A DNA stretch of 52,139 nt from positions 1 through 52,139 of the IMG/VR virus record IMGVR_UViG_2541047752_000007; one strand, 5' to 3'. The notes below the pieces were generated by a model. The model saw only the letters and a list, made by a program, of their open reading frames with translations, was not told the origin of the DNA and did no database searches. This stretch comes from a virus (taxonomy: Duplodnaviria; Heunggongvirae; Uroviricota; Caudoviricetes). Made by a program: the position numbers and the translations under genes. Positions 6,006 through 42,606 of this stretch are shown here, one piece after another (position 1 is the stretch's first letter; the number at the start of each line of letters is the position of its first letter).

Positions 6006-6107
6006 TTATGGATTGATTAGCAGGTACAGACCGCCGAACAAGGCGACGTTAACAGCGATTGCCGCAGCGATGGCAAAAGCCAGGGCGAAAACGTGTTTAC
6101 CGTCCAT
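6006..6107 (-). CDS. small hydrophobic peptide (33 aa, one predicted TM helix)
   Basis: Hand-translated MDGKHVFALAFAIAAAIAVNVALFGGLYLLINP; GAGAGGA RBS about 8 nt upstream; below ORF-track cutoff. Confidence 0.35.
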   Translation of the reverse strand: MDGKHVFALAFAIAAAIAVNVALFGGLYLLINP

Positions 6108-10815: not shown

Positions 10816-11067
10816 ATGACAGCTACAACATTAAGCGAAAATAACGGGCGCGGTTTTCAGGGGACTGCGGAAACCTCAGACGATGGTGATGTATTTGTCG
10901 AATTCGGTGGCGGTAACTATGAATTCGAAACGTCGGCGGGCTGGCACGATAAATGGCCTTTCCCGACGCGCAAGGAATTAAGCGAACGTAAATCATTTGG
11001 CGAAGATGCCGAACGGCTGGCTAATAACAAATGGCTTGATAAGTTCATTGCGGAGGGTGGCAAATGA
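10816..11067 (+). CDS. hypothetical protein
   Basis: 83 aa acidic ORF. Confidence 0.4.
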   Translation: MTATTLSENNGRGFQGTAETSDDGDVFVEFGGGNYEFETSAGWHDKWPFPTRKELSERKSFGEDAERLANNKWLDKFIAEGGK

Positions 11068-11171
11068 AAAAGATTGCAATGTTATCCGCCGCCGTTGCTG
11101 TGGCGGCTGTTTACCTTAGTGCGTCACTCTATATCACTGTGGCGATTGTTAAGCTGATTACTGACATGTGA
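11064..11171 (+). CDS. small single-TM peptide (35 aa)
   Basis: MKKIAMLSAAVAVAAVYLSASLYITVAIVKLITDM; GGAGGGTGG RBS; ATGA overlap with upstream stop. Confidence 0.4.
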   Translation: MKKIAMLSAAVAVAAVYLSASLYITVAIVKLITDM

Positions 11172-11178
11172 GGTTTAT

Positions 11179-11295
11179 ATGCGAGTCGACAAAAATACTG
11201 TCAAGGCTGTTTTCTGTGTGGTCGCTTTCGTCTTCATGGTGGTAATAGCTGGCGCGACTGCGGCAATTATTAGCTATATCGGCGGGGTGATGTGA
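11179..11295 (+). CDS. small single-TM peptide (38 aa)
   Basis: MRVDKNTVKAVFCVVAFVFMVVIAGATAAIISYIGGVM; GAGG RBS. Confidence 0.4.
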   Translation: MRVDKNTVKAVFCVVAFVFMVVIAGATAAIISYIGGVM

Positions 11296-13025: not shown

Positions 13026-13118
13026 ATGGACGATACATTGTTTTATATGTGCTGTTTCTGGGGTTTTATTGCCTTATACCTGTTTATCAGGTGGTTTATT
13101 GAATACCATATGAGGTAA
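13026..13118 (+). CDS. small hydrophobic peptide (30 aa)
   Basis: MDDTLFYMCCFWGFIALYLFIRWFIEYHMR; GAGG RBS 8 nt upstream. Confidence 0.35.
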   Translation: MDDTLFYMCCFWGFIALYLFIRWFIEYHMR

Positions 13119-23172: not shown

Positions 23173-23235
23173 CCATAATCGCGCATAAAAAACAAATAGA
23201 TTAAAATATTTCCTAACAATGCGAAATTGTAATTG

Positions 23236-23257
23236 CCCGGCCACGCGCCGGGTTTTT
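23236..23257 (+). terminator. rho-independent terminator immediately upstream of holin (tR'-like)
   Basis: cccggc-cacgc-gccggg followed by ttttt. Confidence 0.5.
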
Positions 23258-23278
23258 GCTTTGTTGGAGGTAAATCTA

Positions 23279-23478
23279 TGTTCGACAGAATACGGGAGGC
23301 GTGCGCGTATGTGACTGGGGCCGTAACTGCTTTTTTCGGCGCGATAACCATCAATGACATTGCCGTCTTTGTGGGTATCTTATCAACCGTAGGCACATTT
23401 GCCGTCAATTATTACTTCAAATCACAGGAGAACAAGCGAGCGCAAGAGGAACACGACGCGCGAATGGGGAATAAGTAA
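23279..23478 (+). CDS. class II holin (pinholin-like)
   Basis: 66 aa, two predicted TM segments and charged C-terminus; GGAGG RBS; directly precedes SAR endolysin. Confidence 0.6.
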
Positions 23479-23971
23479 CATGATTAGCCAATCGCTGAAG
23501 AATAAGATTATTGCTGCGGCGGCTGGTGGGGCGATCGCTATTGCGGCGGTGATGGTTAAACCATTAGAGGGCGTGGAGTACGATCCCTATCGTGATGTTA
23601 TCGGCGTATGGACCGTTTGCTATGGTCACACCGGAAAAGACATCATGCTTGGTAAGACTTACACGCAATCAGAATGCGATGCTTTGTTAAACAAGGATCT
23701 CCACAAAACCGCAAAAGCGATTGACCCCTATATTAAAGTCGAAATATCAGATTTTACCCGCGCGGCGCTTTATTCATTCGCCTATAACGTAGGTGCAACC
23801 AATTTCAAAACATCAACCTTATTAAAACTACTCAATGACGGCAAGAAATCAGAAGCGTGCGCACAGCTTAAACGCTGGGTATACGCTGGCGGTAAGAAGT
23901 GGCAAGGCCTGGTAAACCGCCGCGAGGTTGAATATGCCGTTTGCGAATGGGGGGAAACGTGGACAAGGTGA
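23479..23971 (+). CDS. SAR endolysin (T4-lysozyme-like, phage 21 R-type)
   Basis: N-terminal SAR segment [15 protein letters not shown]; [34 protein letters not shown] nearly identical to remembered phage 21 endolysin. Confidence 0.85.
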
Positions 23972-24429
23972 AGGCGTTAATTATCGCCGCTGTTGTTTGC
24001 ATTATTGCCGGACTGACCGCCGTAACATGTTATTACCAGGGTGAGGCGGCAAGGTTACAGGAAGAAGTCACGGTAACGAAAGGCGCACTGAAAACGGCAA
24101 GTAACACTATTCAGCAGATGAAGGAGCGAAACGCCGAACTGTCAAAACTTGATAAGAGGTATCACGATGAGATTAAAGCTATCAGATCTGACATTGCCGA
24201 TCTGCGCACTGGCATTGATAACGGTACTATCCGGTTGCGCGTCAACGCAATACCCGTGCGAGTGTCCGACCCCGCCGCGACCGCCAGCCGCATTGATGGA
24301 GCCACCTGCGAGCTTGATGCCACTGCTAGACAATCTTATCTATCCCTCAGAGAACAACTAAAAGAGAAAGACGCACAGATCACTGGCCTACAGGACTACA
24401 TCAAAACTCAGTGTTTACGCAAAGAATAG
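23947..24429 (+). CDS. i-spanin (Rz-like)
   Basis: N-terminal [16 protein letters not shown] then coiled-coil; start codon uncertain (ATG 23947 or GTG 23959). Confidence 0.6.
24167..24361 (+). CDS. o-spanin (Rz1-like) embedded in +1 frame of Rz
   Basis: [24 protein letters not shown] lipobox then Pro-rich [13 protein letters not shown]; AAGAGG RBS. Confidence 0.6.
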   Translation: MRLKLSDLTLPICALALITVLSGCASTQYPCECPTPPRPPAALMEPPASLMPLLDNLIYPSENN

Positions 24430-24708
24430 CAGCGCGTTGACGTGTCGCCGTTTCTGTCAGCCAGCCATAACCTGGCCAATCCTTCCCGCGAGCGACGGCG
24501 GAATAGTCAAAAACACGTAATACCGGATCAACAGTCCCATTAACAGGTCAGGCGCTACCTGGGTAGAAGAAAGCGCCATTCACCAATTTTATAAAATTCT
24601 GGAAACGGTACTGATGAAGCGCCGTTTTCAGTGTTTTATAACTGTTTTCACTCCCTGCGGTGTCGAGTTTTGCGGGGGTTATATTTTTCAGAATAGGAGA
24701 TTATTCTG

Positions 24709-25251
24709 ATGGCTAAGGCTAAAGGCATTAAATTGCCTCAATTTAAGATCCCACTCTTTGAGCATACAACCGTTTTCTTTTGCCCGACCCGCGAGATGTT
24801 CTATGAATTTTGCGAAAAGGCAGGAATTCCGATTGAACCTGATTTCGAGTTGGCTGGAGGATTAACGCTTACTTGCACTGGCGAGAATGGTGGTAACTTC
24901 TACGTGATCGCAGTATTCAACAATGAGTTGGGAACGCTGGTCCATGAATGCGCCCACACTACATTCCACGTTTTAAGTGATGTAGGCGTCGTGGCTACCA
25001 CGGATCCTACCCATCCGGCGAATGAGACTTACGCTTACATGGTAGGCCGTATCTTCGATGCGTTTTTCCCTATCCTAGCAGAATCAAACGAAGCACAGGT
25101 TGCAGCAATGCAGGCGGCAGAAGTCGTCGATCAGGCGCTGGAACAGGCAGAACAGCCGAAGGAAGAAGAAAAGCCAGCGAAGAAAGGTAAACGTAAGCCT
25201 AAGCAAAAAGATGCGTTAGTCCAGCGTGTAATGAGCTTTAAACGAGGCTGA
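24709..25251 (+). CDS. putative HExxH zinc-metallopeptidase-like protein with Lys-rich tail
   Basis: 180 aa; LVHECAHTTFH motif; C-terminal KPAKKGKRKPKQK. Confidence 0.4.
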   Translation: MAKAKGIKLPQFKIPLFEHTTVFFCPTREMFYEFCEKAGIPIEPDFELAGGLTLTCTGENGGNFYVIAVFNNELGTLVHECAHTTFHVLSDVGVVATTDPTHPANETYAYMVGRIFDAFFPILAESNEAQVAAMQAAEVVDQALEQAEQPKEEEKPAKKGKRKPKQKDALVQRVMSFKRG

Positions 25252-25253
25252 TT

Positions 25254-25343
25254 ATGATTGCATCAATATTAACGTTTATAGGCGGTATGGCGGCTGGATT
25301 CATTCTTTGCATGTTTCTGGTGGTTATGTCTAAGCAGGATTGA
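25254..25343 (+). CDS. small single-TM peptide 1 (29 aa)
   Basis: MIASILTFIGGMAAGFILCMFLVVMSKQD; GAGG RBS 7 nt upstream. Confidence 0.45.
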   Translation: MIASILTFIGGMAAGFILCMFLVVMSKQD

Positions 25344-25345
25344 TT

Positions 25346-25453
25346 ATGGATGATTACATTATCGCCGGATTAATCGGTATCTCTGTGTTTCTGGTGGGTT
25401 CTATTATAGTTGCGCTGATAAACGTATATATCAAGTATTTGGTGGAGGGGTAA
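25346..25453 (+). CDS. small single-TM peptide 2 (35 aa)
   Basis: MDDYIIAGLIGISVFLVGSIIVALINVYIKYLVEG; AGGA RBS. Confidence 0.45.
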   Translation: MDDYIIAGLIGISVFLVGSIIVALINVYIKYLVEG

Positions 25454-25454
25454 G

Positions 25455-25529
25455 ATGATTGACCCGCTCATTATCCTTTCTGCCTGCGTCGCTGTATGGC
25501 TGGCGATCATGATATTCATTGAAAGCTGA
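25455..25529 (+). CDS. small single-TM peptide 3 (24 aa)
   Basis: MIDPLIILSACVAVWLAIMIFIES; GGAGGGG RBS. Confidence 0.45.
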   Translation: MIDPLIILSACVAVWLAIMIFIES

Positions 25530-25540
25530 AGGTATTCACC

Positions 25541-25621
25541 ATGAACGCATATGAAATGCTATTGCTGGTGGCTGTGGTTGTAGTCATTGCCGTAGATGTT
25601 TATCGGGAGTTTAAAAAATGA
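25541..25621 (+). CDS. small single-TM peptide 4 (26 aa)
   Basis: MNAYEMLLLVAVVVVIAVDVYREFKK; GAAGG RBS. Confidence 0.45.
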   Translation: MNAYEMLLLVAVVVVIAVDVYREFKK

Positions 25622-25686
25622 AATGGCTTGATTTCCTTTTCCTGATTGTTGCGATTGTTCTTACCATGACCGCGCTGACTCAATAG
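25618..25686 (+). CDS. small single-TM peptide 5 (22 aa)
   Basis: MKWLDFLFLIVAIVLTMTALTQ; ATGA overlap with peptide 4; GGGAG RBS. Confidence 0.45.
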   Translation: MKWLDFLFLIVAIVLTMTALTQ

Positions 25687-25694
25687 GTGAGTAA

Positions 25695-25769
25695 ATGGAT
25701 GTTATCGAAGCCGTATTATTCGTATGTATCGCCGCGTTAATTATCGTTGGGGTGATTATCAATGTCTGA
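25695..25769 (+). CDS. small single-TM peptide 6 (24 aa)
   Basis: MDVIEAVLFVCIAALIIVGVIINV; AGGTGA RBS. Confidence 0.45.
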   Translation: MDVIEAVLFVCIAALIIVGVIINV

Positions 25770-25830
25770 CCGTGAATTATTAATCATAGCTATAGGTTCG
25801 CTGTTAGCTGTTATTGTTTTCTTCTGGTGA
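25762..25830 (+). CDS. small single-TM peptide 7 (22 aa)
   Basis: MSDRELLIIAIGSLLAVIVFFW; 8-nt overlap with peptide 6; GGGGTGA RBS. Confidence 0.45.
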   Translation: MSDRELLIIAIGSLLAVIVFFW

Positions 25831-25838
25831 GAAATATT

Positions 25839-25982
25839 ATGTTTGAATTTATCGATCTACTGATGTTCTTGCTTTGCGCTGGTGTGCTTATTATCGCGTT
25901 AATGTTATGCGCATACGTGATTGTAATGATTGGCGCGCTTATTTACAGAGAAGCAAAACAGAGATTTAAGGGTAAACAATGA
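25839..25982 (+). CDS. small single-TM peptide 8 (47 aa)
   Basis: MFEFIDLLMFLLCAGVLIIALMLCAYVIVMIGALIYREAKQRFKGKQ; GGTGAG RBS. Confidence 0.45.
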   Translation: MFEFIDLLMFLLCAGVLIIALMLCAYVIVMIGALIYREAKQRFKGKQ

Positions 25983-26062
25983 AAGAGCTATTCGACTGGT
26001 TGGAAGTATTAACATACTGCGCAAGTTTTGCGGCTTGCGTATATATCATCAATAAATATTGA
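25979..26062 (+). CDS. small single-TM peptide 9 (27 aa)
   Basis: MKELFDWLEVLTYCASFAACVYIINKY; ATGA overlap with peptide 8; AAGGG RBS. Confidence 0.45.
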   Translation: MKELFDWLEVLTYCASFAACVYIINKY

Positions 26063-26073
26063 GGGGTGACGTG

Positions 26074-26217
26074 GTGAGCAATGAAGAACTAAAAATGGCT
26101 GATGAAATAAGAAAGGCACTTGACGCGGCAGAAAATAATGAAACCGTCTACATTTCCGAACGGGAAGTGGAAAAGATGATGGATGAATTTAAATTAAAAT
26201 TTGAAAAAGATAATTGA
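26074..26217 (+). CDS. small acidic hydrophilic protein (47 aa, GTG start)
   Basis: VSNEELKMADEIRKALDAAENNETVYISEREVEKMMDEFKLKFEKDN; GAGGGG RBS; ends at TerS start. Confidence 0.3.
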   Translation: MSNEELKMADEIRKALDAAENNETVYISEREVEKMMDEFKLKFEKDN

Positions 26218-39624: not shown

Positions 39625-39650
39625 AGGCCGCTATAAGCGGCCTTTATTTT
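39625..39650. terminator. bidirectional rho-independent terminator after tape measure gene
   Basis: aggccgc-tataa-gcggcct followed by ttatttt; between convergent genes. Confidence 0.55.
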
Positions 39651-39756
39651 ACATGGTAAGGATATAAATTAAACAGCACAGGAATGCGGGCGCGGCGAAG
39701 TCGCAAACGCTAGCCATATTCCATGCTTTTGGTAAAAAACCACCATACCACGGCAT
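39649..39756 (-). CDS. small hydrophobic peptide (35 aa)
   Basis: MPWYGGFLPKAWNMASVCDFAAPAFLCCLIYILTM; GGAGGG about 12 nt upstream; C-terminal part of ORF-track 39649-39840. Confidence 0.3.
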   Translation of the reverse strand: MPWYGGFLPKAWNMASVCDFAAPAFLCCLIYILTM

Positions 39757-39799
39757 TCTTTCTCGTTTCCCTCCGCAAAATTCCGCTATGTAACGATAT

Positions 39800-39934
39800 T
39801 CAGCCTGTGTGTTCCCGCGCAAAAAAGAATGTACATCCAATCAGGCCGCCAGTGAGATAATCGCCAGTAAGCAGGCCGATAACAACCTGTATAGTCGCCG
39901 CAGCCAGTGCGTGACCAATAACGGTTAAATCCAT
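39800..39934 (-). CDS. small glycine-zipper membrane peptide (44 aa)
   Basis: Hand-translated MDLTVIGHALAAATIQVVIGLLTGDYLTGGLIGCTFFFAREHTG; GGGAGGA RBS 7 nt upstream. Confidence 0.4.
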   Translation of the reverse strand: MDLTVIGHALAAATIQVVIGLLTGDYLTGGLIGCTFFFAREHTG

Positions 39935-39936
39935 CG

Positions 39937-40122
39937 TTAATCCTCCCGATCGTTCTCAAATGTGCCATCTACAAATTTTTGCAGCCCGGCGATAAGTTGT
40001 GTTGCCTGCGATTTTTCAATCACTATGGTTTCAGTCCCCATAAGTTCGGTTATCCACAGCCGACCATCCTCATCAAGATCTAACCTAACTCCGTAACATA
40101 ACTCTGTTTCGTCAATAATCAT
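39937..40122 (-). CDS. hypothetical acidic protein
   Basis: 61 aa; stop overlaps start of the 44-aa peptide gene. Confidence 0.4.
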   Translation of the reverse strand: MIIDETELCYGVRLDLDEDGRLWITELMGTETIVIEKSQATQLIAGLQKFVDGTFENDRED

Positions 40123-40231
40123 TTTTCCTCCTATAATCTTCCGTTACGTGCGACGTAACCCCTGCCGAACATCACTAACCAGATGTTCCAGATCTCCCGC
40201 TAGGTATATTTCTCCTCCTCCATATTCCACC

Positions 40232-40486
40232 TCACTTATGAGCGCCTTTCACTCCGCAATGACGGTTGTATTCCAGGTGATCGATAATTAACCAAATATT
40301 CAAATCTTCACTGAACAGCCGCCAGTCAGGATTGATATCGAATTTAAAGCCATAACCATCACGTAATTTTTTGGGGCGGGCTTCTTTTTTCAGGAAGGCG
40401 TTAAGCAACTTCTTGCCTTTCTTGATTACCCGTTCCTGTGCATTCTTTTGTGCTTTCAGGTTTTTTTCGATAGTTACCAGTTTCAT
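40232..40486 (-). CDS. hypothetical basic protein (84 aa)
   Basis: Lys-rich N-terminal half; possible toxin-like fold but no confident family. Confidence 0.4.
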   Translation of the reverse strand: MKLVTIEKNLKAQKNAQERVIKKGKKLLNAFLKKEARPKKLRDGYGFKFDINPDWRLFSEDLNIWLIIDHLEYNRHCGVKGAHK

Positions 40487-40503
40487 AACTCACCCCATCG
40501 TCC

Positions 40504-40659
40504 TTAGTTAAGCGCCCTCAGGAAGAAATCCCGGTATTCATCATCCTTCGCGTTCATCATGAATTGACCGTATTTGAATGCGTCGTCGAAACCCTTAACA
40601 ATTGCTACTTCCACTTGCTCGAATGCGTTGTTTAGCATCACTACTACATAGCTACTCAT
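40504..40659 (-). CDS. hypothetical small protein (51 aa)
   Basis: Hand-translated MSSYVVVMLNNAFEQVEVAIVKGFDDAFKYGQFMMNAKDDEYRDFFLRALN; 17 nt upstream of the 84-aa gene. Confidence 0.35.
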   Translation of the reverse strand: MSSYVVVMLNNAFEQVEVAIVKGFDDAFKYGQFMMNAKDDEYRDFFLRALN

Positions 40660-40772
40660 TTTTGGGCCTCACTTGCTGGTACCGCTTTTCTTCTTGCTTC
40701 CTGTATACAGCTTGTTGCTTCATGTGTGAATCCATATTGTAAACTAGCTATAATTCTTGTGATGAATATCTC

Positions 40773-40796
40773 ATTTTTCGCGTAGAAGCGCGTAAA
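40773..40796 (+). promoter_or_regulatory. conserved 24-bp motif upstream of tail gene M (copy 2)
   Basis: atttttcgcgtagaagcgcgtaaa, followed by tatacaaaatgtaa motif and RBS. Confidence 0.5.
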
Positions 40797-40830
40797 GATA
40801 TATACAAAATGTAACTTACAGGAGGGGGGT

Positions 40831-41184
40831 ATGCCGGAAGTGTTCAGATGGACACCACAGAGAAGCTACAGCGTAAACAGTGAGCCTAACGTGTCCGTTA
40901 TCAAGCTGGGCGATGGCTATGAACAGCGCCAGACAAAAGGGATTAATCCACTACTTGACAGCTATACGCTGGTCTTTAAAGGTACGAGCGCCGGATGCGG
41001 TGACGCCGGAAACGTGGCGCTCCAGGTTGACGCATTTTTAAGAGCACGTTGCGCGGTCGAGGCGTTTTACTGGACGCCATCTACAGACGGAGTGAAAAGG
41101 CTTTTTGTATGCCGAAAGTGGAGCATGGCGAAAGACGGCCCGGTATGCACTCTGAATGCAACGTTTGAACAAGTTATCAATTAA
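40831..41184 (+). CDS. M: minor tail protein M
   Basis: 117 aa; FRW, GDGYEQRQ, FEQVIN align with remembered lambda gpM. Confidence 0.8.
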   Translation: MPEVFRWTPQRSYSVNSEPNVSVIKLGDGYEQRQTKGINPLLDSYTLVFKGTSAGCGDAGNVALQVDAFLRARCAVEAFYWTPSTDGVKRLFVCRKWSMAKDGPVCTLNATFEQVIN

Positions 41185-41197
41185 TGGAGAAGTCAAT

Positions 41198-41383
41198 ATG
41201 TATGCTATTTGTGTAGTTGACCGCACGGGCGCTTTTACATTATTTGACGACTATGAAATCAAAGATCTTACCGTAAAGGCTGACAATGGCGAGATCTGGT
41301 ATCTTCATGACGTTGGTGACGGGTATGTCGGATGCAGATCGAGAGAGGGTAGGGAAGTTTTATTCTTGCTTGATGGCGTATAA
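41198..41383 (+). CDS. hypothetical small protein
   Basis: 61 aa from MYAICVVDR; GGAGA RBS. Confidence 0.4.
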   Translation: MYAICVVDRTGAFTLFDDYEIKDLTVKADNGEIWYLHDVGDGYVGCRSREGREVLFLLDGV

Positions 41384-41412
41384 ACACTACCCCGCGCGAA
41401 GCGGGGTTATTA

Positions 41413-41529
41413 TTATTCCATTTCCATTAACGCTATATTTTCCGCTATCGTTTTCCAGTCCAGATCTACAGCATGAACACCAAATACTATCAATCCCATT
41501 GCGATTAGTGCTAAAACTTCGATTTTCAT
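41413..41529 (-). CDS. small single-TM peptide (38 aa)
   Basis: MKIEVLALIAMGLIVFGVHAVDLDWKTIAENIALMEME; GAGG RBS. Confidence 0.35.
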   Translation of the reverse strand: MKIEVLALIAMGLIVFGVHAVDLDWKTIAENIALMEME

Positions 41530-41541
41530 AATCAACCTCAC

Positions 41542-41622
41542 TTAATTAAGAAAGGCATAAACGATGACAATCGCGCCAGCCACTACCAAAACGTTTTCGA
41601 TTACTTCGTCCACTCTATTCAT
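41542..41622 (-). CDS. small single-TM peptide (26 aa)
   Basis: MNRVDEVIENVLVVAGAIVIVYAFLN; start shares a base with upstream stop. Confidence 0.3.
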   Translation of the reverse strand: MNRVDEVIENVLVVAGAIVIVYAFLN

Positions 41623-41825
41623 TAAGGTAACTCCACTTCATTAAATGTAACAAGCACCCCTTGATTTTCTTTATTTATAATTATGAAGGCATTAATTGAA
41701 GGCAGACATCTTTCCACGCGGTAAACGTCACCAATATCTAAACTGTAATATTCTGTTAATTCTCTATTGTTCCCTTTAGCAAAACCCGTAAACCTAACCA
41801 TTCCTTGACCGTCGTACTTTAACAT
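41622..41825 (-). CDS. hypothetical protein
   Basis: 67 aa ORF in moron operon. Confidence 0.4.
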   Translation of the reverse strand: MLKYDGQGMVRFTGFAKGNNRELTEYYSLDIGDVYRVERCLPSINAFIIINKENQGVLVTFNEVELP

Positions 41826-41833
41826 ATACAGTC

Positions 41834-42082
41834 CTATAGGCTATCACGCAGATAATTAACGCCCTTATCAGTGACGAATGAATGATTAACCTGGTTTTCA
41901 TCCGTCATGATGATGAATAACTTTTCCTGTAGGTATTTCGCTTTCGGGTACAGCGTTAAGCAGACCTGGTACAAAATCCCGCGCTCAATCAGCAAATCAA
42001 TAAATTCGTGCTCATGATAACCGATAAGGCGGGCGGCCTGCTTCAACGTGTACACATAATCACTGTGATTGCGCCGCGCCAT
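41834..42082 (-). CDS. putative HTH DNA-binding protein
   Basis: 82 aa; YTLKQAARLIGYHEHEFIDLLIERGIL helix-turn-helix-like. Confidence 0.4.
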   Translation of the reverse strand: MARRNHSDYVYTLKQAARLIGYHEHEFIDLLIERGILYQVCLTLYPKAKYLQEKLFIIMTDENQVNHSFVTDKGVNYLRDSL

Positions 42083-42090
42083 ATTGCCAC

Positions 42091-42438
42091 CTATTTGTCG
42101 AACGCTCCAAGATTATCTATACAGAAATCCTTTGCCGCTTTTTCGTATTCGCGTTTTGCTTGCGGATCGTCAGCCGGGAAACCTTTTGCGTGTATTTCAC
42201 CAGGGCAAGACTGATCCATAGAGTCTGCAAAATTAACATTGAAGTTAACATTAATATCTTTCGGGTTCATATCTTCCACCTCATCAACTATCTGTACCGG
42301 ATTAGCAGCATATTTCACTGGATGGCCTAAACTACATTCAAGAATCCTGCCTTCTTCCAGGGCTACTTCTTCGCTATCAAATAATCCGAAACACTCCTTT
42401 CTGCCACTTAACCACACATCAAGACTGTATTTTTTCAT
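42091..42438 (-). CDS. hypothetical protein (about 115 aa from MKKYSL)
   Basis: ORF-track 42091-42540; internal start chosen to avoid long overlap. Confidence 0.4.
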   Translation of the reverse strand: MKKYSLDVWLSGRKECFGLFDSEEVALEEGRILECSLGHPVKYAANPVQIVDEVEDMNPKDINVNFNVNFADSMDQSCPGEIHAKGFPADDPQAKREYEKAAKDFCIDNLGAFDK

Positions 42439-42606
42439 TTTTGTTAGCCTCATATTTGACAGGTTCGATCTGGTATCCCAAAAGGCGGTCATCCTCAACA
42501 AGTAAAAGCGCGTCAACCAATGCTTCCCCCTCGTCGTCATACAGGGCGATAACCTTTTCCCTACCGTCTGTCATGAATGCCGTCAACTTCCATAGCTTTT
42601 CAGTCA
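42419..42606 (-). CDS. hypothetical small protein (62 aa)
   Basis: MTEKLWKLTAFMTDGREKVIALYDDEGEALVDALLLVEDDRLLGYQIEPVKYEANKNEKIQS; GGAGGTG RBS; first gene of moron operon. Confidence 0.45.

Follow-up and report, generated by a model that had tools for sequence, protein, structure and literature searches.

A conserved collinear array of single-helix mini-genes next to the terminase genes of mEp021-group Escherichia coli phages

What does a temperate phage of E. coli keep between its lysis and terminase genes, in an interval where annotation records little or nothing? We addressed this question in a window of 52,139 nucleotides, positions 1 to 52,139 of IMG/VR virus record IMGVR_UViG_2541047752_000007, whose nucleotide similarity and synteny across the lysis–gp49–terminase region place it in the mEp021 (mEpimmI) group of E. 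coli temperate phages, a Nus-dependent, non-lambdoid group (PMC11893012). A preliminary description of this DNA had reported nine consecutive open reading frames (ORFs) of 22–47 codons on the + strand, and they are indeed there: positions 25254–26062 carry nine ATG-initiated ORFs of 29, 35, 24, 26, 22, 24, 22, 47 and 27 amino acids, to which we refer as mini-genes 1 to 9 and, collectively, as the array.

Nine mini-genes in the window

The mini-genes are listed below. Family letters, occurrence among 59 distinct arrays and pN/pS, the ratio between the proportions of nonsynonymous (pN) and synonymous (pS) differences, come from the comparison of related loci in the next section.

25254-25343, + strand: mini-gene 1, family A, 29 amino acids, MIASILTFIGGMAAGFILCMFLVVMSKQD; pN/pS 0.35
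25346-25453, + strand: mini-gene 2, family B, 35 amino acids (37 from a TTG at 25340), MDDYIIAGLIGISVFLVGSIIVALINVYIKYLVEG; B or its variant B2 in 50 of 59 distinct arrays, pN/pS of B2 0.28
25455-25529, + strand: mini-gene 3, core family C, 24 amino acids, MIDPLIILSACVAVWLAIMIFIES; 56 of 59 arrays, pN/pS 0.31
25541-25621, + strand: mini-gene 4, core family D, 26 amino acids, with a basic C-terminal tail, MNAYEMLLLVAVVVVIAVDVYREFKK; 57 of 59 arrays, pN/pS 0.25
25618-25686, + strand: mini-gene 5, core family E, 22 amino acids, MKWLDFLFLIVAIVLTMTALTQ; 53 of 59 arrays, pN/pS 0.15
25695-25769, + strand: mini-gene 6, family F, 24 amino acids, MDVIEAVLFVCIAALIIVGVIINV; 33 of 59 arrays, plus the allelic F2, pN/pS 0.34
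25762-25830, + strand: mini-gene 7, family G, 22 amino acids, MSDRELLIIAIGSLLAVIVFFW; 37 of 59 arrays, pN/pS 0.30
25839-25982, + strand: mini-gene 8, family H, 47 amino acids (51 from a GTG at 25827), a hydrophobic stretch of about 30 residues followed by a basic tail, MFEFIDLLMFLLCAGVLIIALMLCAYVIVMIGALIYREAKQRFKGKQ; 16 of 59 arrays, pN/pS 0.34
25979-26062, + strand: mini-gene 9, core family I, 27 amino acids, MKELFDWLEVLTYCASFAACVYIINKY; 55 of 59 arrays, pN/pS 0.08, pS 0.26

In all nine peptides the Kyte–Doolittle 15-residue maximum lies between 2.0 and 3.4 and the hydrophobic stretch is single, which bears out the earlier assignment of one hydrophobic helix to each. Direct inspection likewise located a purine-rich, Shine–Dalgarno (SD)-like motif about 4–9 nt before every one of the nine ATGs, for example GGAGG before mini-gene 3 and AGGTGAG before mini-gene 6. 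Coupling through ATGA had been proposed for three pairs of mini-genes; it holds for 4/5 and 8/9, whereas 6/7 overlap by 8 nt (ATGTCTGA). The remaining spacers between mini-genes measure 1–11 nt.

Could such a series of ORFs be an accident of composition? The array region has 39% GC against 46% for the whole window, and AT-rich DNA tends toward hydrophobic ORFs (PMC11188072). An alternative to functional peptides would accordingly be chance ORFs in an AT-rich leader, or translation that merely relays ribosomes so as to set the expression of terminase, whatever the peptide sequence; besides composition, it can draw on the tight coupling to the small terminase subunit gene terS, which could in principle hand on ribosomes, and on the ORFs being unannotated by PGAP. 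The nine transmembrane (TM) mini-ORFs, however, cover 96% of the segment on the + strand, with none on the - strand, whereas 2000 dinucleotide-preserving shuffles gave a mean of 1.1 such ORFs, a maximum of 5 and a mean coverage of 16%; an origin of the array by chance is therefore excluded. Elsewhere in the window there are at most two such ORFs per kb, and in lambda at most one per kb (SD required).

Arrays, families and selection in related phages

The region has matches in Escherichia phages MagusPhagus, mEp010, mEp044, mEp013, mEp554, mEp021 and mEp515, at 86–90% nucleotide identity; the relatives align over 30–88% of a 2-kb query and have an identical gene order. We compared 69 loci drawn from GenBank phages, RefSeq E. 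coli prophages, IMG/VR contigs and two metagenome contigs, among which there are 59 distinct array sequences, with 548 mini-ORFs in total. The search for syntenic arrays that the preliminary description had suggested succeeded throughout: in 69 of 69 loci, the 316–1241 bp that separate the gp49 homologue from terS hold a collinear array of 3–13 mini-TM ORFs. These fall into about 20 families whose order is constant, (A/J/O/R/S/W)–B/B2–X–C–L–b–M–D–P–E–F–G–N–H–I/Q, the array of the window reading A B C D E F G H I. Families D, C, I and E form a near-universal core, and the others are gained and lost as whole genes; the smallest array (locus L030) has three members and lacks C, D and E.

The translational layout is conserved as well. 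An SD-like motif precedes 84% of mini-ORF starts, the figure for the remaining ATGs of this DNA being 23%; intercistronic distances in the 59 arrays cluster at −8, −4 and +4 to +12; and the start/stop overlaps D/E, F/G and H/I are kept across arrays. The array is thus a conserved, collinear and modular trait of every mEp021-group phage that we examined.

Within this order, alignments judged against segment-preserving shuffles separated two kinds of relationship between families. Some are allelic variants that share one slot (J/R/S/W, B/B2, I/Q and F/F2); mini-gene 1 of the window lies in the variable first slot, for which the relatives have A, J, O, R, S or W. In two further sets, E/N/P/V and D/X/L, diverged paralogues are found together within a single array, and the array has therefore grown partly by tandem duplication and divergence. 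The earlier characterization of the peptides as diverse and not duplicated consequently holds within the window, whose nine members are mutually dissimilar, but not across the arrays of the whole group.

We then asked whether the peptide sequences themselves are under selection. Nei–Gojobori counts pooled over all families gave, in the annotated frame, a pS of 0.27 and a pN of 0.067 (pN/pS 0.24), against pN/pS of 0.96 and 1.41 in the shifted frames, and the variable alignment columns fell on codon positions 1, 2 and 3 in numbers of 90, 61 and 182. Genuine disruptions are rare, about 3 in 645 family–locus matches. Frame-specific pN/pS, ORF integrity, synteny and SD enrichment together mark the mini-ORFs, as far as sequence comparison can tell, as protein-coding genes under purifying selection at the amino-acid level. 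The proposal of a dedicated cassette of separately translatable mini-membrane-protein genes is thereby upheld: the ORFs are conserved in relatives, and the region does not behave as a noncoding leader.

The alternative of chance ORFs or a peptide-indifferent relay is hard to maintain beside these data. Composition-preserving shuffles yield 1.1 such ORFs on average, not nine; selection is frame-specific and ORFs stay intact over 59 distinct arrays; family A, as described below, is kept in an unrelated phage lineage; and terS is preceded by its own SD. We regard this alternative as largely refuted and give it next to no probability.

By family, pN/pS runs from 0.08 (I), 0.12 (M) and 0.15 (E and X) up to 0.39 (N). 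In the same loci the neighbouring genes gp49 and terS have values of 0.13 and 0.16, and several families are constrained as strongly as this packaging enzyme gene. Families I, M and E show low ratios (omega) despite a pS of 0.20–0.27; because their omega is as low as that of enzymes, the constraint argues that in these families the particular sequence matters, beyond mere hydrophobicity. Family I, invariably the last of the array and replaced by the allelic Q in three arrays, combines the lowest hydrophobicity with the strongest constraint.

One family has a second home. A copy of family A with 84% DNA identity, SD and stop context included, is found in about 90 rV5-like (Vequintavirus) virulent myoviruses, as an intact 29-codon ORF, mostly unannotated, which lies among ordinary small genes and outside any array; in Escherichia phage FV3 (JQ031132, 96606-96695; L007, 2006-2095), the homologue MIASILTFMGGVAVGFIICLFIVIMSMRG fills a 95-bp gap between annotated genes. 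Since family A is common to the mEp021 group and rV5-like phages, single mini-genes have evidently been exchanged between unrelated phages, and its presence in strictly lytic phages points to a role in lytic infection, beyond lysogens alone. Several records of about 135 kb labelled 'Campylobacter phage' also carry family A; they resemble rV5-type coliphage sequences. UniRef names a family A representative (P0145) 'DUF3789 domain-containing protein', a label that we rejected, as neither P0145 nor its relatives nor the rV5-type copy matched DUF3789 in Pfam, even up to E 10.

Otherwise the distribution is narrow. The region is present in about 0.6% of complete E. coli genomes (35 of 5426). GTDB species-representative genomes returned neither gp49 relatives nor matches to a degenerate family I pattern, and in IMG/VR that pattern matched only contigs of the mEp021 group; families other than those of the window were not found in other phage groups. 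Family H is an orphan with about 20 close clusters among 5.8 billion proteins, and a full HMMER scan of 1.84 billion representatives (50% library) returned two representatives plus two spurious TM matches. Family A excepted, the cassette is, on these searches, specific to the mEp021 group of E. coli phages.

Given the constancy of order, the peptides might co-assemble into one hetero-oligomeric membrane complex with C-D-E-I at its centre, like psbE-F-L-J or a multi-peptide pore. The constant gene order and the kept overlaps (D/E, F/G and H/I) suggest stoichiometric co-expression, four families are near-universal, and small-xxx-small or GxxxG motifs can be read in the sequences of families A, B, J, R/S and M. 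An assembly would, however, have to tolerate a membership of 3–13 with whole subunits freely gained and lost, the absence of three of its four core members from L030, and a family A that persists outside any array in rV5-like phages; we consider it improbable.

Expression, neighbouring genes and proposed action

Most families share a common build, in which an acidic N-terminal cap (M-x-x-[DE] or M-[KR]-E-x-D-F) leads into a hydrophobic core of 17–20 residues, followed by a short neutral or basic tail or by none; families E, F, G, N and P end 0–3 residues past the helix, and only D and H have basic tails. We infer that the peptides insert into the inner membrane in a single pass, and with an acidic N flank and a neutral or basic C flank in most families, the positive-inside rule predicts an N-out/C-in topology. 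Searches of the nine peptides against Pfam, PHROGs, NCBIfam and PADLOC gave no significant match.

When would such peptides be made? The genes on either side of the array bear on this question, and are as follows.

23235-23253, + strand: terminator-like hairpin directly upstream of the holin gene
23278-23478, + strand: class II holin, 66 amino acids, two TM helices; PF16080 in relatives
23480-23971, + strand: endolysin with an Ala/Gly-rich N-terminus resembling a signal-anchor-release (SAR) sequence
to 24429, + strand: Rz, with an embedded Rz1 lipoprotein ORF at 24167-24361 (lipobox LSGC)
24430-24708: gene-free spacer of 280 bp between Rz and the gp49-like gene
24709-25251, + strand: gp49-like gene, 180 amino acids, homologue of mEp021 gp49 (phrog_1365); fixed left border of the array
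26071-26217, + strand: tenth small ORF, 48 amino acids, GTG start after GAGGGGTGA; acidic, soluble, with no TM helix
26226-26744, + strand: terS, small terminase subunit of Sf6 type (PF20901, E = 1e-37); fixed right border of the array

The position between lysis and terminase genes given in the preliminary description is thus right as to region but not as to direct adjacency, because the 280-bp spacer and the gp49-like gene intervene on one side and the tenth ORF on the other. The stop codon of the gp49-like gene lies 2 nt ahead of mini-gene 1, and 8-nt spacers flank the tenth ORF between mini-gene 9 and terS, completing an unbroken chain of 12 cistrons from gp49 to terS in which no spacer exceeds 11 nt. 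Beyond terS come the large terminase and then the portal gene. The lysis cassette at 23235-24429 looks, from its sequence features, like a pinholin/SAR-endolysin system.

A consensus scan of 25254–26062 found no sigma-70-like promoter or terminator on the + strand, although weak, lysogen-active or non-sigma-70 promoters could escape such a scan. Promoter-like sites number 5 overall, compared with 7.1 expected, and the - strand has only two, both weak. Given the lack of internal signals, the unbroken 12-cistron chain downstream of the lysis genes and the terminator-like hairpin before the holin gene, which recalls tR' of lambda in standing just upstream of the lysis genes, the analogy with late transcription in lambda makes it most likely that the peptides are co-expressed late: the array would be transcribed with the late genes during lytic growth, from a shared late transcript.

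These signals also bear on whether the peptides are membrane-depolarising type I toxins of the Ibs, Ldr, ShoB or TisB kind, a candidate that the preliminary description had put forward, and which would serve host shut-off or prophage addiction. A size of 22–47 amino acids, a single hydrophobic helix and tandem occurrence are reminiscent of Ibs and Ldr arrays, and prophage-borne type I toxins are known (PMC12648545). The defining features of such systems are nevertheless missing. We searched Rfam with both strands up to E 1 and obtained no match, on which ground a known noncoding RNA or antitoxin RNA within the array was rejected, and the - strand has no surplus of promoter-like sites. The −8 to +12 nt between cistrons are too few for separate promoters and structured 5' untranslated regions, the chain is polycistronic and shared with packaging genes, and Hok, Ldr, Ibs, TisB, ShoB, DinQ and other toxin families gave no Pfam or NCBIfam match up to E 1. 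Nine unregulated toxins would, moreover, be hard for a lysogen to maintain. We therefore regard the toxin reading as very improbable.

How, then, might the array act? By analogy with AcrZ, MgrB, SgrT, MgtS and KdpF, we think it somewhat probable that it encodes late-expressed, N-out/C-in inner-membrane microproteins that act through helix–helix binding to membrane proteins. The nine genes would be initiated separately and in part coupled translationally, and each peptide, once inserted in the inner membrane with its N-terminus out and its C-terminus in, would bind, as a helix ligand within the membrane, to a larger membrane protein and modulate it; the low omega values suggest that such binding would be specific. 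Because C, D, E and I are near-universal, the core members may have a function intrinsic to the phage group, while the exchange of whole genes, the alleles in the first slot and the passage of family A between lineages suggest that the variable members take on tasks specific to hosts or competitors, for instance the blocking of membrane-embedded defence effectors or of inner-membrane proteins that rival phages use.

Several observations weigh against this proposal. Variability shows no significant helical-face periodicity at 100 degrees (combined p = 0.16), and selection within families is purifying, not diversifying as an arms race would predict. Late expression suits anti-defence or exclusion poorly, such genes usually being early or prophage-expressed, and closeness to the pinholin/SAR-endolysin cassette suits a role in lysis timing equally well. 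The transcript may also be structured differently, as a predicted rho-independent terminator is annotated in the spacer between Rz and gp49 in the mEp021 and mEp013 records; a simple terminator scan of the corresponding spacer of the window, 24430-24708, found none. This spacer might act as a terminator or as a site for packaging or regulation.

A stronger version of helix–helix binding, which we hold only tentatively and think rather unlikely, is a combinatorial arsenal in which each peptide neutralises a different host inner-membrane protein, be it an abortive-infection effector, a channel or the transporter used for DNA entry by rival phages. Whole mini-genes would then pass from phage to phage, also across the divide between temperate siphoviruses and virulent rV5-like myoviruses, according to the hosts and competitors that each encounters. 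If this were true, the arrays would represent an unrecognised class of counter-defence or competition genes hidden below the size cut-offs of annotation.

The main rival to helix–helix binding is a tuning of the lysis clock, in which the peptides would adjust pinholin/SAR-endolysin timing in the manner of an antiholin or a releasin or through the membrane potential, with the number of peptides setting the timing. SAR-endolysin release depends on membrane potential, as in phage 21 and P1 lysis, and both P1 (Lyd proteins) and Mu (releasin) employ several extra small membrane proteins in lysis, which provides a precedent. A complete lysis cassette stands about 0.8 kb upstream of the array in the same orientation, the basic C-terminal tails of families D and H resemble those of holins, and the strongest holin match of any peptide, although weak, is that of H to phrog_920 (E = 0.029, 14.9 bits). 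The cassette is, however, complete without the array, from which it is separated by the 280-bp spacer, gp49 and, in some relatives, the predicted terminator, whereas the array is packed against terS. The number of genes varies from 3 to 13 across phages even though the holin is of one kind in every lysis cassette examined; in rV5-like phages, family A has no recognisable lysis genes beside it; and PHROGs and Pfam disclose no significant holin homology, most peptides lacking the charged C-terminal domain typical of holins. We accordingly consider lysis timing doubtful as the function of the array.

The genes that border the array offer few further clues. The gp49-like protein has an invariant HExxH (H79-E80-x-x-H83) together with H87 and E106 and a lysine-rich disordered tail, and one homologue carries the source name 'PolyVal metallopeptidase superfamily'. 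It has no match in Pfam, phrog_1365 is a PHROG of unknown function, and a weak AlphaFold2 model (pLDDT 65) found nothing below E = 0.09 in a Foldseek search of the PDB. The tenth ORF, which some relatives lack, has no Pfam match and belongs to no family; its equivalents in some E. coli prophages are annotated by PGAP as hypothetical coding sequences. In mEp013 an HNH endonuclease gene directly follows gp49 and so heads the array (L005, 2028-2513), and another lies between the endolysin and Rz genes of a metagenomic relative (L022, 2752-3273); insertions at such differing points fit a region that is a hotspot of mobile insertion. In the latter contig (ERZ28619225 scaffold_262), a Mu-F-like head morphogenesis gene downstream of the portal, from about 8491, has an intein-splicing match (PF14890).

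Small TM ORFs also occur elsewhere in the window. Three that are preceded by an SD and encode a single TM helix lie on the + strand in the early region, at 11064-11171, 11179-11295 and 13026-13118 (35, 38 and 30 amino acids), the first two mutually adjacent and wedged among small soluble ORFs. A - strand island at 39649-42540, within the + strand tail-gene region and placed like a moron, has small TM ORFs with good SDs at 41542-41622 (26 amino acids), 41413-41529 (38 amino acids) and 39800-39934 (44 amino acids), and an SD-preceded TM ORF of 33 amino acids lies at 6006-6107 on the - strand.

Annotation and comparison with known systems

Standard pipelines drop genes below about 30 codons, and the records of the group vary. 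In the 14 RefSeq E. coli prophages inspected, PGAP annotates at most one small coding sequence in the interval, leaving nearly empty 0.7–1.1 kb that hold up to 13 genes; PHANOTATE/Pharokka records have 4–8 'hypothetical proteins' there, some with extended frames, and the mEp021 record has nothing. The exact sequences of four of the nine window peptides are present in a collection of 15 billion proteins, where matching entries are named 'hypothetical', 'putative membrane protein' or, in the one UniRef case, 'DUF3789'. The paper that defines the group does not discuss the array ORFs (PMC11893012), and nothing that we found in the literature on small phage and prophage membrane proteins, lysis-cassette neighbours and E. 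coli Ribo-seq describes an array of this sort, collinear throughout a phage group and with as many as 13 genes of 22–47 codons.

With about 20 families of minimal transmembrane peptides, the arrays constitute a compact and tractable natural collection in a phage group that infects K-12. They offer a system for asking what single-helix microproteins do, how they recognise targets, and how they originate by tandem duplication, divergence and exchange. Should the peptides turn out to inhibit membrane proteins or defence effectors of the host specifically, they could be put to use as probes and would add a new category to the accessory functions of phages.

The closest parallels to the proposed action are the small membrane-protein regulators AcrZ, MgrB, SgrT, MgtS, KdpF, CydX and PmrR, which, like the predicted products of the array, have fewer than 50 amino acids and one transmembrane helix; these regulators act by binding larger membrane proteins (PMC12648545). 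Pfam and NCBIfam scans found no sequence similarity to them, and whereas these regulators are single chromosomal genes, usually beside or co-regulated with their target, up to 13 mini-genes are chained here in a phage operon. Type I loci (ibs/sib, ldr/rdl, shoB/ohsC and tisB/istR) also encode tiny hydrophobic peptides, sometimes in tandem, but as repeats of one family with their own promoter, a long 5' untranslated region and an antisense RNA, in contrast to the diverse families and −8 to +12 nt spacers of the array. Holins, antiholins and accessory lysis proteins such as S21, P1 LydA-D and Mu releasin are, like the proposed products of the array, small late-expressed inner-membrane proteins of phages; holins, however, usually have 60–150 amino acids, at least one transmembrane domain, a charged C-terminal domain and a gene beside that of the endolysin, whereas the array peptides have 22–47 amino acids, are mostly tailless, vary in number and are encoded beyond Rz/Rz1 and gp49.

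Tandem, separately translated genes of 20–45 codons within one transcript are known from psbE-F-L-J, the pet small subunits and psm-alpha 1-4 of Staphylococcus. Those operons encode subunits of complexes of fixed stoichiometry or amphipathic secreted cytolysins, in contrast to the variable membership and uniform hydrophobicity of the array. The interval between lysis and terminase genes is, for its part, a classic slot for accessory genes. Small accessory genes that phages exchange horizontally, and that often encode membrane proteins, are familiar from the small TM hypothetical proteins of other phages, such as those of cluster AU of Arthrobacter (PMC5679793), and from morons such as lambda bor and lom (PMC3594210), although morons have their own promoter and terminator and the array, by consensus scan, has neither. 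Small phage membrane proteins are thus a known kind; their group-wide, collinear and modular organisation is new.

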